Shown here piece by piece: positions 37,502 through 46,441 of a stretch of 55,178 bases of DNA; positions within the stretch are counted from its first letter, which is position 1, and each line of letters begins with the position of its first letter. A program made the translations under genes and the position numbers. Below the pieces are notes generated by a model. The model saw only the letters and a program-made list of their open reading frames with translations. It searched no databases and was not told where the DNA came from. The stretch comes from Pseudomonadota bacterium (lineage in GTDB: Bacteria; Pseudomonadota; Alphaproteobacteria; SP197), in NCBI GenBank assembly GCA_027592745.1, contig JAQCLG010000001.1, positions 1-55,178 on the forward strand, written 5' to 3'.

Positions 37502-39469
37502 ATGAACGACCTTTTCGACACCCCCTCCAACGGCAAATCGAGCTACACCGCCAAGGACATCGAGGTCCTGGAGGGCCTGGAGCCTGTCCGCCGACGGCCT
37601 GCCATGTACATCGGCGGCACCGACGAGGGCGGCCTGCACCACCTCTTCGCCGAGGTCCTGGACAACGCCATGGACGAGGCCGTGGCGGGCCATGCCAGCC
37701 GCATCGAGGTCGAGATCGCCGCCGACGGCACCGTTACCGTGGCCGACAACGGGCGCGGCATCCCGACCGACCCGCACCCGAAATACAAGAAACTCTCGGC
37801 GCTGGAGGTCATCCTCACGACGCTGCATTCGGGCGGCAAGTTCTCCGGCAAGGTCTATGCGACCTCCGGCGGCCTGCACGGCGTCGGCGTCAGCGTCGTC
37901 AACGCGCTTTCGGACAAGCTGACGGTGGAGGTCGCGCGCGACAAGCGGCTGTGGCGCCAGAGCTACAGCCGGGGCAAGCCCACGACCAAGCTGCAGGACG
38001 CCGGCCAGGTCGCCAACCGGCGCGGCACCACGATCAGCTTCCATCCCGACCCCGAGATCTTCGGCCAGAGCGCGCGCATGCGCCCTGCCCGCCTGTTCCG
38101 CATGACGCGTTCCAAGGCCTATCTCTACCGGGGCGTGGAGATCCGCTGGCGCTGCGCCGAGGAATTGCTGAAGGACGCGGGCGAGACACCAACCGAGGCG
38201 GTCTTCCACTTCCCCGGCGGTCTGGGCGACTTCCTGGCCGCGACCCTGGAGAAACGGCCCACGGCAACGCCCAAGCCCTTCTTGGGTACCGCAGGCCTGG
38301 GCGACGAGGTCGGCAAGGTGGAATGGGCGATCGCCTGGCCGCTCGACGGCGAGGGCTTTTCCTCGACCTACTGCAACACGGTGCCCACGCCCGAGGGCGG
38401 CACCCACGAGGCAGGCATGCGCGCGGCCCTGACCAAGGGGCTGCGCGCCTACGGCGAGCGCGTCGGCAACAAGAAGGCCGACAAGATCACCGGCGAGGAC
38501 GTCGCGGGTGGCGCCGGTATCCTGCTTTCGGTCTTCATCCGTGACCCGCAGTTCCAGGGGCAAACCAAGGAAAAACTTGTCAATACCGACGTTCAGCGTC
38601 AGGTCGAACAGGCCCTGCGCGACCATGTCGACCACTTCCTGACCGGCGACCCCGAGGGCGCCAACATGCTGCTCGAGCTGACCCTGGAGAAGGTCGAGGA
38701 GCGGCAGCGGCGCAAGGCCGAGAAGGACATCAAGCGCAAGGCGCCCGCCCGCCGGCTACGCCTGCCGGGCAAACTCGCCGACTGCACCCGTTCGGGCAGC
38801 AACGACACCGAGATCTTCCTGGTCGAGGGCGACAGCGCCGGCGGCTCGGCCAAGCAGGCGCGCGACCGCGAGACCCAGGCCGTGCTGCCCCTGCGCGGCA
38901 AGATCCTCAACGTCGCCAGCGCCTCGGACGACAAGAAACACGGCAACCAGGAGATCAAGGACCTGCTGCAGGCGCTGGGCTGCGGCACCGGCAAGAACTA
39001 CCGCGAGGAGGATCTGCGCTACGACCGCGTCGTCATCATGACCGACGCCGACGTCGACGGCGCCCATATCGCAGCATTGCTGATGACCTTCTTCTACCGC
39101 GAACTGCCCGGCCTGATCGCCGACGGCCACCTCTACCTGGCGGTGCCGCCGCTCTACCGCCTGAGCCGGGGTGGCGACGTCGCCTATGCCCAGGACGACG
39201 CCCACAAGGACCGCCTGATGAAAGAACGCTTCAACGGCAGCAGCAAGGTGGAAATCAGCCGTTTCAAGGGCTTGGGCGAAATGCCTGTGGCGCAACTCAA
39301 GGCCACGACCATGTCGCCCAGGAGCCGCCAGATGCTGCGCATCGAGATCCCCGAGGGCCAGGAACGCCACACCCACGTCCAGATCGAGAACCTGATGGGG
39401 CGCAAGCCCGAACTGCGCCTGAAGTTCATCCAGGACCACGCCACCGAGGTCGAGGAACTGGACGTCTAG
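37502..39469 (+). CDS. parE: DNA topoisomerase IV subunit B
   Basis: 655 aa, which is ParE length rather than GyrB. GHKL ATPase motifs, Toprim EGDSAGGSAKQARDR, and PLRGKILNV. Confidence 0.9.
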   Translation: MNDLFDTPSNGKSSYTAKDIEVLEGLEPVRRRPAMYIGGTDEGGLHHLFAEVLDNAMDEAVAGHASRIEVEIAADGTVTVADNGRGIPTDPHPKYKKLSALEVILTTLHSGGKFSGKVYATSGGLHGVGVSVVNALSDKLTVEVARDKRLWRQSYSRGKPTTKLQDAGQVANRRGTTISFHPDPEIFGQSARMRPARLFRMTRSKAYLYRGVEIRWRCAEELLKDAGETPTEAVFHFPGGLGDFLAATLEKRPTATPKPFLGTAGLGDEVGKVEWAIAWPLDGEGFSSTYCNTVPTPEGGTHEAGMRAALTKGLRAYGERVGNKKADKITGEDVAGGAGILLSVFIRDPQFQGQTKEKLVNTDVQRQVEQALRDHVDHFLTGDPEGANMLLELTLEKVEERQRRKAEKDIKRKAPARRLRLPGKLADCTRSGSNDTEIFLVEGDSAGGSAKQARDRETQAVLPLRGKILNVASASDDKKHGNQEIKDLLQALGCGTGKNYREEDLRYDRVVIMTDADVDGAHIAALLMTFFYRELPGLIADGHLYLAVPPLYRLSRGGDVAYAQDDAHKDRLMKERFNGSSKVEISRFKGLGEMPVAQLKATTMSPRSRQMLRIEIPEGQERHTHVQIENLMGRKPELRLKFIQDHATEVEELDV

Positions 39470-39525
39470 AGTGGATCGTCCTCACGTGGAACCGCGCGCG
39501 GTTCCACGTGAGGACGAGAATCCGA
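39467..39525. repeat. REP-like nested palindrome, family member 1
   Basis: TAGAGTGGAT, then a perfect 20/20 palindrome CGTCCTCACGTGGAACCGCG|CGCGGTTCCACGTGAGGACG (39477-39516), then GAATCCG. Its first 3 nt are the parE TAG stop. Confidence 0.85.
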
Positions 39526-39561
39526 ACTATCTCAATAAGTTTGAGCAGGGACGGCCGCGGA

Positions 39562-40092
39562 TCACGGCTCCTGGGTGCACTGGGGATTGAACGACCTGAA
39601 GGCGCACCAGGTGGGATCCGGTTCGGGCGAGGGCTGGGTCTGGGCCGACGCCCCACCGCCGTCCTTCGTCGCCGGCGCGATGTAGGGCTGGAACTCGGGC
39701 GATCCCACCACGCCGTCTATGCCTGCCACCAGTTCGCGCAGGTCCTGCGTGATCTCCAGGCCGCAGACCCGGGAACAGATGCTCATCTCGTTGTCCCAGC
39801 CGCTGTTGAGCGCGACGCGCATATGGCCGCTCATCGCTTCGGCCAGGTCCCGGTCATAGGCGTTCTCGATGATGGCGAAATAGACACTCATCAGCCAGTC
39901 GGGGTCCCCCGGCACGCAGTCGCACAGGATCGTGTAGCCCAGGGGTCTGCCCATGTCGCCGGCTTCGGGGCGCTCCTGCGCGCGCGGCGTGGCCGTGGTT
40001 GCAAGCAGCAGGAACCCCGCAGCAAACAGGAACCTGCCGACCGCCTTGGCGGGTGGCAATCCTGCCGCAAGACATCCTGGAGGTGCACCCAT
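39562..40092 (-). CDS. secreted 6-Cys protein, paralog a (C-terminal WCAFRSFNPQC)
   Basis: ATG at 40092; the ORF could also start at TTG 40119. Signal-like segment FLFAAGFLLLATTATPRAQ. Confidence 0.65.
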   Translation of the reverse strand: MGAPPGCLAAGLPPAKAVGRFLFAAGFLLLATTATPRAQERPEAGDMGRPLGYTILCDCVPGDPDWLMSVYFAIIENAYDRDLAEAMSGHMRVALNSGWDNEMSICSRVCGLEITQDLRELVAGIDGVVGSPEFQPYIAPATKDGGGASAQTQPSPEPDPTWCAFRSFNPQCTQEP

Positions 40093-40193
40093 CGGCTTTC
40101 CGCTTCTAAGAAGATTCAATAAAAAAACAATTACCCAATAATAACACGGTATTATCTAGATTTTATCACCTTTTACAGAAGGCCAATGCACCT

Positions 40194-40996
40194 TCATTCC
40201 GCGCCGGGCTTGCGGCAATCCGGCCGCGAGGGGCTGGCCCGGCAGATGGAGGTCGACCAGTTGTCGCCCGACCCCGCTGTCACATAGAGCGATTCGATGC
40301 CGCCGCCGGAGGAGGTATCGGCCTCTGCAGCGGGGGGCTGGTAGGCGGCCTCGACGGACTGGGCGGCAACGGTCTCGGCCTCCACCACCTCCTCCGGCTC
40401 CGCGGGCGCCGGCGCAACCGTTTCGGCCTGGGCTGGATCGGCGCCGTCCGCGGTTCCGGCGGCTTCCAGGGCCTCGGCATCGGCGGCGGGCTCAATTGCG
40501 ACGGCGACCGGCACCTCGTCTTCGGCCGCCTCGGGCGCGGCGACGCCGGCGGCAGCCTCGACGGGCACGGTGGCTATCTCCCCGCCGGCGGCAACGACAT
40601 CGTCCGCCACCGGTTCATCGGCCGGCGCCGGTCCCAGGAGCGCGCGCAGGGCCGCACCGTCGACCACACCGCCATCGGCCCGAGCCAGGGTTATCTGCAG
40701 CTCACGGGTGACCGGCTGATCGCAGATCCGCTTGCACAGGCTCATGTTGCGGTCCCAGCCGTCCATGAGCGCACCCTCGAGCGGGGCTGCAGCGCATCGG
40801 CATAACCCTGGCCGTAGGCATCGGCGAAGGCTGCACGGTAGGTTTCGATGATCCAGGCCTTTTCCCCCACCACGCAGCCGCAGTTGACCGTATAGGCCAG
40901 CAGCTTGCCCATGTTTTCGGCATCGGGCCGTTCGGCGGCAAGGACCGGGCGGCTGCAGGCAAGCAGCAGCAGGAGAGCGACAGCAAGGCGCATCAT
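40194..40996 (-). pseudogene. secreted Cys-motif protein, paralog b, with a 1-nt frameshift and an acidic linker
   Basis: ATG at 40996 in an ATGA overlap with the paralog c stop. The frame changes at the G4 run 40783-40786 (C4 on the coding strand). Restoring one C gives ...ADALQPPLEGALMDGWDRNMSLCKRIC, which is collinear with paralog a. Confidence 0.6.
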
Positions 40997-41469
40997 GGCG
41001 AGGTCCGGCATTGCGGATGGAAGGGCCTGAAGGCGCACCAGGAAGGAAGCGGGCTGGAAGCCGGAGCCTTGTCCTCCCGGGGCAGGCTGTAACCCGCCCC
41101 GTACCGGGTCAGAAAGTCGTCGTCGGGTTCTGCTTCGATCATCGCCAGGACCTCGCCCAGATAGAGCGTGTAGTCGTTGACGCAGACGTAACCCGAACAG
41201 ACGCTTGCGGTGTTGCGGTAGAAACCGTCCATGGTCGGGCGCATGTAGCCGGCGGCGGTGTCGGCATAATCCGGGCCGGATTCCTCCACCATCATCGCGT
41301 AAAAGGCGACCTGCTGGTGGTCCGATTCATAGGGCAGGCATTCGCACATCAGGACGAAGCCGAGGAACTCCCCAAGGCGCTGTGGACTGACCGATTCCTG
41401 GGCATGCGCGCCGGTCTCGGTCAGCACCAGAAGCAGCCCCAGGACGTTGCATCTGGCGGTCGTGCGCAT
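40993..41469 (-). CDS. secreted 6-Cys protein, paralog c (C-terminal WCAFRPFHPQC)
   Basis: First ATG at 41469 (MRTTARCNVLGLLLVLTETGAHA). The start is uncertain. Confidence 0.65.
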   Translation of the reverse strand: MRTTARCNVLGLLLVLTETGAHAQESVSPQRLGEFLGFVLMCECLPYESDHQQVAFYAMMVEESGPDYADTAAGYMRPTMDGFYRNTASVCSGYVCVNDYTLYLGEVLAMIEAEPDDDFLTRYGAGYSLPREDKAPASSPLPSWCAFRPFHPQCRTSP

Positions 41470-41568
41470 GCGGGGATTTTCACCGGGGTGGCGGGACAAG
41501 GCAAGAAGTCATGACGTCGCCCCTTCCTGCCCGTCCGGACGCCCCGATGGCGGTCCTGAACCGGCGTT

Positions 41569-42111
41569 TCAGCGGATCAGGGGCGAAAGGTCCCGGAAGG
41601 CGTCGGTGCCGGCCCGCTCCAGCCATTCGAACAGGACCATCTCGGCGTTGACGATCAGCGCCCCGTTCGCCCGCAGGCGGGCCAGGGCGAGTTCGCGGCT
41701 CTGGCCGGTCCGGCTGGACACCGCGTCGGCCACGATGGCGACGCCGTAACCCTCCCCCAGCAGGTCCAGTGCGGTCTGCAGCACGCAGACATGGGCCTCG
41801 ACCCCGGCGAGCACGAAGCAGTCGCGCCCCAGGTCCCGCAGCGCGGCGCGGGCGGGATCCTCGGCAAAGGCCGAAAACGCCAGCTTGTCGTGGCATTCCC
41901 GCGGCCTCAGGGCCTCGTCGAAGGGCGCCACCAGGGCGCCCAGCCCCCTGGGATACTGGCGTGTCGCCAGGACCGGCACGTCGAGACGGCGGGCGGCCTG
42001 GAGCAGGATGGCGCAACGTTCCACGACACCTGGCCCGCCCTCGATCGCGGGCATCAGCCGTTCCTGCAGGTCGATCAGGACGAGGGCGCTGCGGCGGGCT
42101 TCCATGCGCAT
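41569..42111 (-). CDS. isochorismatase-family hydrolase
   Basis: 180 aa with ALVLIDLQ and catalytic-Cys GVEAHVCVLQTALD motifs. Confidence 0.88.
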   Translation of the reverse strand: MRMEARRSALVLIDLQERLMPAIEGGPGVVERCAILLQAARRLDVPVLATRQYPRGLGALVAPFDEALRPRECHDKLAFSAFAEDPARAALRDLGRDCFVLAGVEAHVCVLQTALDLLGEGYGVAIVADAVSSRTGQSRELALARLRANGALIVNAEMVLFEWLERAGTDAFRDLSPLIR

Positions 42112-45937: not shown

Positions 45938-46207
45938 TCAGGACAGGCGGCGCAGGATCCTGGCCTTGACCAGATAGGACCCGGCCGAGACGCCGACCGC
46001 CGAGAAGCGGTTGCCGACGGCCTGAAAGCTGGGCTCGACGATGAGTCCGGCCAGGATCGCGCGGTCCATGGCTTCCTGGAAGGCGAGCATGGTCGCGGTC
46101 ACGTCCTGGGCGAGTTCGCGGTCGCTGTACTCGGACGGCCGGCGTGCCACCTCGAAGGCGGCGATGTTGGTGTCGTCGTGATCGATGAAGGACTGGGCCT
46201 GCGGCAT
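45938..46207 (-). CDS. hypothetical 89-aa protein
   Basis: ATG at 46207 with GGGAGA upstream. No family recognised. The longer ORF to 46471 runs into the repeat and is spurious. Confidence 0.45.
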   Translation of the reverse strand: MPQAQSFIDHDDTNIAAFEVARRPSEYSDRELAQDVTATMLAFQEAMDRAILAGLIVEPSFQAVGNRFSAVGVSAGSYLVKARILRRLS

Positions 46208-46441
46208 CGTCTGTCTCCCTTCGGTAACCCCGCTACCCGCACGCGACGGGCCGGAGGTTTTGCGTCCCGCCGTTGCCGACGGTTTGCCGTTGTTGAGGAG
46301 CCTGCCACCCGGCCCCGCCGGGCGATGCTCCAACCCAGTCAGCATCCACGCACGCGCCCGGCCAGGCCAGCACGAAACGCGGCCTGCGTGACGGAGGTCA
46401 CGCGCTCCACGGCCCAACGTGGCGGCTGGCAGCGTCGCCCG

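Follow-up and report, generated by a model that had tools for sequence, protein, structure and literature searches.

The locus examined here, positions 39562-41469 of contig JAQCLG010000001.1, lies in a window of 55,178 nucleotides (nt), the whole stretch of DNA that was analysed, and carries three consecutive coding regions on the minus strand, termed c, b and a in this order. They raise the question of what kind of protein is encoded by tandem genes that resemble each other but no characterised family. The genes belong to a lineage-restricted family of a new domain of unknown function (DUF) type, which is absent from the curated family and structure libraries. Tentatively, the products can be read as exported, disulfide-stapled helical envelope proteins with a tethered docking loop, which are vertically inherited as tandem paralogs; this is the reading that we prefer, although it may well be incomplete or wrong.

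An initial annotation, made from the letters of the window, had described three consecutive minus-strand genes, and these are present. Gene c (40993-41469) extends from the ATG at 41469 to the TGA at 40993 and encodes 158 amino acids (aa), as judged from the open reading frame (ORF) and the orthologs P0006-P0014; gene b (40194-40996) encodes 267 aa if a 1-nt deletion at about 40786/40787 is repaired; gene a (39562-40092) extends from the ATG at 40092 to the TGA at 39562 and encodes 176 aa. The ATGA at 40993-40996, in which the stop codon of c overlaps the start codon of b, had also been noticed, and it is kept in the related loci L002, L007 and L022. The minus-strand frames of a, b and c have a GC content at third codon positions (GC3) of 0.76-0.83 and a ratio of nonsynonymous to synonymous substitution rates (dN/dS) below 1, and are therefore regarded as the true coding frames. 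Two plus-strand shadow ORFs (39508-40122 and 41011-41514) were dismissed as typical antisense ORFs of high-GC DNA, given the GC3 of the minus-strand frames and their conserved orthologs.

The three genes are paralogs, as revealed by BLASTP comparisons of a with c (E=3e-24, 32% identity), of a with b (E=7e-24, 38% identity over the domain) and of c with b (E=7e-5). Alignments were made of the trio of the window, of 16 orthologs and of 36 family members. Five columns are invariant throughout, namely one glycine, both cysteines of a C-x-C motif and both cysteines of a C-x3/4-C motif, and the two motifs are separated by a spacer of 46 residues in nearly every member. Thus, the shared cysteine framework that had been claimed for the three paralogs holds in a proper multiple alignment, in which the core cysteines do align. 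In a, they correspond to C57-x-C59 (nt 39916-39924) and C106-x3-C110 (nt 39763-39777), and in c to C42-x-C44 and C91-x4-C96; in both proteins, they lie in a helical domain, which is followed by a linker that is short and acidic in c. The motifs of b are distributed over two frames of the minus strand: the N-terminal part (frame A, 40787-40996) contains the signal peptide and C-G-C, and the C-terminal part (frame B, 40194-40786) contains C-x3-C, an acidic A/E/P/V linker, which is roughly 120 aa long where roughly 100 aa had been estimated, and the terminal loop.

From the conserved glycine onward, the number of cysteines is even in 36/36 members (4, 6, 8, 10 or 12), and additional cysteines always occur as local pairs of the type C-x8-C, C-x11-C or C-x4-C. 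Since the counts are even and the extra cysteines are paired locally, disulfides are the natural reading, and the three periplasmic disulfides suggested by the initial annotation would be plausible. A C-x8-C loop is located near the C-terminus in 28/36 members; of 30 loops, 25-26 have proline at positions 4 and 7, and a tryptophan precedes the loop by 1-5 residues. This loop reads W162-C163-AFRSFNPQ-C172 in a (nt 39577-39609, after the linker), W144-C145-AFRPFHPQ-C154 in c (nt 41008-41040) and W...C-RASPSRPD-C in b (nt 40215-40259), all on the minus strand. In L002 and L007, the b ortholog has a C-x8-C loop twice, internally as YCTFRNYAKGC and terminally as LCRTSPSRPEC; b of the window, P0032 and P0033 possess the terminal one only.

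Two variations of this architecture were observed. In one subfamily, the C-termini of P0023, P0024, P0026 and P0034 carry a conserved module P-x-CSATEDLI-x-GV-x-CEGRQKGR-x-NGY (C-x11-C), which is either added after the C-x8-C loop or replaces it. L012:128-553 encodes a truncated mini paralog, in which hardly anything separates the N-terminal GEFIGFALICDC segment from a C-terminal LCHLNPARPEC loop; this paralog is located upstream of one c-like and one a/b-like copy, resulting in three tandem copies.

The loops of a and c are almost identical (P-S-W-C-A-F-K/R-P-F-N-P-Q-C; PDPSWCAFKPFNPQC in L002) despite an overall identity of only ~30%. In the lineage of the window, both loops have the arginine codon AGG at a position at which all other genomes have the lysine codon AAG, and some synonymous sites still differ between the two genes. 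This parallel lysine-to-arginine exchange suggests a constraint shared by both loops or gene conversion of a short tract.

Selection was assessed by the method of Nei-Gojobori for the window versus L002 or L007. The dN/dS was 0.23 for a, 0.15-0.40 for c and 0.31-0.49 for b, with the value for b being inflated by the low-complexity linker; the neighbouring isochorismatase and parE genes yielded 0.19-0.35 and 0.04, respectively. Genes a, b and c are under ordinary purifying selection and are not diversifying copies, as had been assumed initially: their overall range of 0.15-0.5 is comparable to that of the adjacent isochorismatase gene. A side observation concerns ParE (37502-39469, plus strand), which shares 97% protein identity with its counterpart at L002:5711-7678 at a synonymous divergence (dS) of only 0.30, whereas a, b, c and the isochorismatase show 48-76% identity between the window and L002 at a dS of ~0.85-0.9. 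This contrast means either that the codons of parE are very strongly constrained or that the a/parE junction is a boundary of recombination.

The N-termini of a, b and c each contain a short basic region, a hydrophobic core of 8-15 residues and a site of the A-x-A type, and these features are conserved in the orthologs, which is in line with the N-terminal signal peptides proposed before. Cleavage is predicted at AHA|QE in c, at VLA|AE in b and at PRA|QE in a; a twin-arginine consensus was looked for in the three N-termini and not found. The cysteine of the hydrophobic LLAC of b is not conserved in its orthologs, and b is therefore unlikely to be a lipoprotein; lipoprotein-like N-termini are found in two distant members, P0036 and P0038. 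The mature proteins are acidic, with isoelectric points (pI) of 4.1-4.3. With a predicted signal peptide, a signal peptidase I site in it and an even count of mature cysteines, the proteins would, as judged from their sequences, fit into the general class of Sec-exported, disulfide-bonded periplasmic proteins.

Searches against 24,736 Pfam models and 18,950 NCBIfam models gave zero matches for a, b and c at E≤1, and the shared domain remained unmatched when all 36 members were compared with Pfam. PADLOC gave no match, PHROGs only noise (E>0.08), and the best hit of a profile search of PDB sequences was an irrelevant kinase (E 0.099). The source annotations of the members read 'hypothetical protein' only, and nothing relevant was found in the literature on DUF2927 or on periplasmic CXC/CXXXC proteins. 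The earlier view of an unrecognised family is thus confirmed, as none of the profile searches assigned the genes to a characterised family. The family is also narrowly distributed, being seen in a small number of freshwater, Rhodospirillaceae-like bacteria that are uncultured. Word-indexed searching across 5.8 billion clusters retrieved 14 proteins, close orthologs only, the alignment query of this search being swamped by low-complexity words of the b linker; when 1.84 billion representatives at 50% identity were searched exhaustively with a HMMER profile, 27 clusters were obtained at E≤1e-3, 22 of which at E≤1e-10. Among 185,579 GTDB species representatives, scanned with a pattern, a single locus emerged, which belongs to a metagenome-assembled genome labelled 'uncultured Rhodospirillaceae bacterium', and metagenome scans by subfamily alignment yielded no locus for A6 and one locus for A7. 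Several source samples are labelled aquatic or lake metagenomes. No homolog was detected by tblastn in 72,556 plasmids and 50,697 phage genomes. One member, P0035 (L017:92-1708, 538 aa), has the family domain (E=3e-9, with the four core cysteines aligned) fused to a C-terminal DUF2927 and a Peptidase_M23 domain, and this is the sole domain fusion among the family members.

Structure prediction with AlphaFold2 resulted in an all-alpha model of a, based on the 36-sequence alignment, with a predicted local distance difference test score (pLDDT) of 82 overall and of 93-97 over residues 41-130; the model of c, based on 17 sequences, is likewise all-helical but moderate (pLDDT 70). The helices of the a model span residues 44-56, 64-78, 81-96, 102-110, 113-129 and 135-143. 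C57-x-C59 directly follows helix 1, C106 and C110 are located on the short fourth helix, and the linker is modelled with less confidence. A solved relative was defined as a HMMER match at E<1e-3, or a Foldseek match at E<1e-3 or with a template modelling (TM) score >0.5, and none was found: the best Foldseek matches in the PDB had E values of 3.0 (c) and 1.0 (a) with TM≤0.27, and the best match in BFVD had an E value of 0.64. Hence, not even the high-confidence model of a has a structural match in these two collections.

The genomic position of the array is highly conserved. In the window, a parE-type gene for topoisomerase IV subunit B (37502-39469, plus strand) is followed by the convergent genes a, b and c, an isochorismatase-family gene (41569-42111, minus strand) and a divergent DEAD-box helicase gene on the plus strand. 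The same slot, consisting of the DEAD helicase gene, the isochorismatase gene, the array and convergent parE, is found in the window, L001-L011, L018, L021, L022 and L023. The array has the content c-b-a in L001-L006, L011 and L018 and c-b only in L007-L010, it sits in the same slot in L022, and the slot of L023 harbours a pair of P0026/P0022-type members that are only ~33% identical to a. The copy number ranges from 2 to 4 across the loci. Four copies in the order c-b1-b2-a occupy the slot in L021 (L021:6941-9544), which points to a recent duplication of b. On short contigs, the P0023 gene of L013 is convergent with parE and the P0020 gene adjoins the helicase gene. Only the most distant members lie elsewhere, among them the lipoprotein-type P0036, whose gene comes after genes for an S49 peptidase and for an 80-aa protein; most contigs of distant members are too short for an informative neighbourhood. 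Since the slot is fixed on every longer contig examined, the locus is best described as vertically inherited with local duplication and loss and not as an island. Toxin, effector, Rhs, VgrG, secretion-system or mobile-element genes were not found adjacent to the array in any locus examined. The arrangement had been taken to be typical of inhibitor, immunity or effector proteins; a fixed housekeeping slot with no toxin neighbours and no plasmid or phage homologs speaks against this idea.

Several relatives (L001-L006, L018, L023 and L024) have an additional gene of 166-192 aa without a Pfam match, which lies between c and the isochorismatase gene in the opposite orientation. Its copy in L002 (3220-3792, minus strand) encodes a lipoprotein (MTRIPALTLIGLLLLAGC...) that is unrelated to the family, and the window and L007 lack the gene.

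Gene b had initially been described as one intact gene. The description as a paralog with linker and terminal loop is correct; however, b of the window is not a single reading frame, and a 1-nt deletion had been silently bridged. Two ORFs are present, 40742-41038 (with the true start at the ATG at 40996) and 40194-40766. At the break, the window reads CAG-CCCC, versus CAGGCCCC in L022, a contig of assembly GCA_027622505.1 with ~99% nucleotide identity, in which b is intact (protein P0025). Insertion of one G after CAG at 40787 restores a b protein of 267 aa, which then reads ...ALQAPLEGALMDGW... / ...YADALQAPLEGALMDGWDRNMSLCKRIC...; intact orthologs have 241-309 aa. The single-G deletion is either a genuine pseudogenising mutation or an assembly error. 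Programmed frameshifting was ruled out, as there is no slippery heptamer at the site and the 99%-identical genome simply has the extra G.

How might these proteins work? We infer Sec export, the pairing of the disulfides, the role of the loop and the nature of the partner as follows. The Sec-type signal peptide would direct each protein across the membrane, followed by oxidative folding in the periplasm. In the modelled all-alpha domain of ~90 residues, two disulfides would staple the C-x-C after the first helix to the C-x3/4-C on the fourth helix. This domain would be followed by a flexible acidic or proline-rich tether of 25-35 aa in a and c and of about 120 aa in b, and the C-terminal end would form a 10-residue, disulfide-closed loop W-x(0-4)-C-x3-P-x2-P-x-C. 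The helical domain may then act as the working head, and the constrained loop may dock to, or plug, an endogenous protein of the periplasm. This partner could be an enzyme of the cell-wall or peptidase type, such as a peptidoglycan or protein hydrolase, and the paralogs would share it or partition it among themselves. The fusion of P0035 to M23 and DUF2927 domains and the S49 neighbourhood of P0036 hint weakly at such a link to envelope enzymes. A bolder version of this proposal holds that the family represents a new alpha-helical fold with a reversed C-x-C / C-x3-C double disulfide, whose tethered, disulfide-cyclised W-C-x3-P-x2-P-x-C peptide plugs or binds an endogenous enzyme of the envelope, for instance a peptidase of the M23 or S49 type, and thus an undescribed class of periplasmic tethered-loop regulators that is confined to a freshwater Rhodospirillaceae-like lineage; we consider this version distinctly unlikely. 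Several points weigh against the reading as exported proteins with a docking loop. The link to peptidases comprises one fusion and one neighbourhood, and the context of the locus points to no partner. The terminal loop of a is modelled with a pLDDT of only ~70-76. The c subfamily has C-x4-C instead of C-x3-C, and a metal site is just as possible for the four core cysteines. Furthermore, the broken b implies that not all three copies are needed in this organism, unless the break is an assembly error.

The metal site leads to a different explanation, in which the proteins are periplasmic metal-binding proteins or chaperones, for instance for Cu(I) or Zn, and the four invariant cysteines form a thiolate site and no disulfides. 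These cysteines are the sole invariant side chains of the family, the mature proteins are acidic (pI ~4.1-4.3), and C-x-C and C-x3-C resemble the copper-binding CFCF of Cox11 and CxxxC of Sco. However, Sco has a thioredoxin-like fold, Cox11 an Ig-like fold and Csp a cysteine-lined four-helix bundle, and the family matches neither these nor any other metal-handling family in Pfam and NCBIfam, and no fold match was found. The conserved neighbourhood lacks cop, cox, nos and czc genes and any other copper-related neighbours; histidine and methionine are not conserved in any column, the C-x3-C versus C-x4-C spacing differs among the subfamilies, the accessory cysteines are always paired as in disulfides, and the signal peptides are of the Sec type and not of the twin-arginine translocation (Tat) type. 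A role in metal handling is therefore unlikely. Iron-sulfur or haem cofactor proteins were ruled out, as neither CxxCH nor a Tat signal is present.

Small, exported, disulfide-rich proteins encoded in a tandem array of 2-4 copies could also be diversifying periplasmic immunity or inhibitor proteins on an AT-rich island, which would protect against incoming toxins or lytic enzymes such as effectors of type VI secretion systems (T6SS) or contact-dependent inhibition (CDI) systems or lysozymes, and the disulfide-closed, proline-containing loop recalls CKPHDC of Ivy and C-T-x-S-x-P-P-x-C of Bowman-Birk inhibitors. Genes for T6SS/CDI immunity proteins sit next to the gene of their cognate effector or toxin, often in loci that are variable or mobile. 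The array, however, is flanked by isochorismatase, DEAD helicase and ParE genes wherever the contig reaches them, divergent members on short contigs still adjoin the ParE or helicase gene, and the vicinity of all loci is free of genes for effectors, toxins, Rhs, VgrG or mobile elements. The dN/dS, which is comparable to that of the isochorismatase gene, the lack of a PADLOC match and of plasmid or phage homologs, a modelled fold for which the PDB holds no matching inhibitor or immunity protein, and an 'island' that is merely a 101-nt intergenic region all argue in the same direction, which renders such a protective role very unlikely. It is also conceivable that the genes encode precursors of secreted, disulfide-cyclised peptides, with the helical domain and the linker serving as pro-region and the W-C-x8-C decapeptide being released as a signal or antimicrobial. 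This would fit the loop, which a and c share more closely than any other segment, and its position at the extreme C-terminus behind a disordered linker; however, there is no conserved protease, exporter or modification gene nearby, purifying selection also acts on the helical domain, whose cysteines are invariant, and the loop also occurs internally in some b orthologs. We regard this explanation as extremely improbable.

Comparison with known cysteine-rich proteins supports analogies, not memberships. Proteins with a cysteine-stabilized alpha-beta (CS-alpha-beta) motif are defined by the order C...C-x3-C...C...C-x-C within ~40-50 aa and by a fold of a helix and an antiparallel sheet. In the cysteine-stabilised-helix motif of defensins, a helical C-x3-C is disulfide-bonded to C-x-C (PMC5234102). 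The present family, like the defensins and scorpion toxins, combines C-x-C with a helical C-x3-C, the cysteines are the sole invariant residues, and two parallel disulfides would be the natural reading. In contrast to these peptides, the order is reversed with C-x-C coming first, 46 residues separate the two elements, the domain of ~90 aa is predicted to be all-alpha without a beta-sheet, and C-x4-C replaces C-x3-C in the c subfamily. Neither sequence nor fold gave a match, and the likeness is one of local geometry, an analogy only. Inhibitors of the Ivy and Bowman-Birk types are likewise small, exported and disulfide-bonded and have a cysteine-closed, proline-containing loop, but the loop of the family is C-x8-C with prolines at positions 4 and 7, is tethered at the extreme C-terminus and not embedded, and belongs to an all-alpha protein with no Pfam or Foldseek relation to these inhibitors. 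No Pfam match and no Foldseek match in the PDB was found to the lysozyme inhibitors Ivy, PliC/MliC, PliG and LprI/DUF1311. The family also resembles the Pfam-type DUF families of exported, lineage-restricted proteins, with which it shares the signal peptide, the cysteine framework and the hypothetical status; it lies, however, outside all Pfam and NCBIfam models.

If the proposal of exported, disulfide-stapled helical proteins is correct, one well-defined and structurally confident but unclassified domain is added to the catalogue of bacterial envelope proteins, which could seed a new Pfam/DUF entry and serve as a target for structural genomics. The locus is a tidy example of tandem duplication and loss, with 2-4 copies in a fixed housekeeping slot, and the C-terminal peptide of the paralogs apparently undergoes concerted evolution. 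The practical significance is modest at present, since the family occurs in a very narrow range of taxa, exported orphans of this kind are common, and no lead to a function has emerged.

Expression of the array may start at two sites. The b-a intergenic region (40093-40193, minus strand) comprises 101 nt with 35% GC in a window of 68.5% GC; orthologous b-a regions are AT-rich as well, with poorly conserved sequence. It is probably a separate promoter or regulatory region of a, and the AT-rich island of the initial annotation is reduced to this single promoter-type region. A scan for the sigma-70 consensus gave no promoter match. Upstream of c, an element at 41476-41504 (minus strand) consists of TTGCCT, 17 nt and GAAAAT; the ATG of c follows 6 nt after the -10-like hexamer, and there is no Shine-Dalgarno sequence. 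In six aligned orthologous regions (window, L002, L007, L018, L021 and L022), the element is conserved as CTTGyC...GGyGAAnATC...ATG (TTGyCT-N17-GAAnAT). The short distance to the ATG and the missing Shine-Dalgarno sequence suggest that c and b may be expressed as a leaderless or near-leaderless transcript that would be independent of the isochorismatase gene. At the other end of the array, a perfect palindrome of 42 nt (39476-39517; 21-nt arms without a spacer) is located between the stop codons of parE (39469) and a (39562) and is probably a bidirectional terminator, although a T-run is absent.

Elsewhere in the window, a c-di-GMP-I-GGC riboswitch aptamer (Rfam RF03167) was detected at 46219-46297 (minus strand) with 61.5 bits versus a gathering score of 59. 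The aptamer is located 11 nt upstream of an 89-aa ORF (about 45938-46207, minus strand; MPQAQSFIDHDD...), which has no Pfam match, and an 89-aa gene, likewise without Pfam matches, is found at the equivalent position in L001 and L007.

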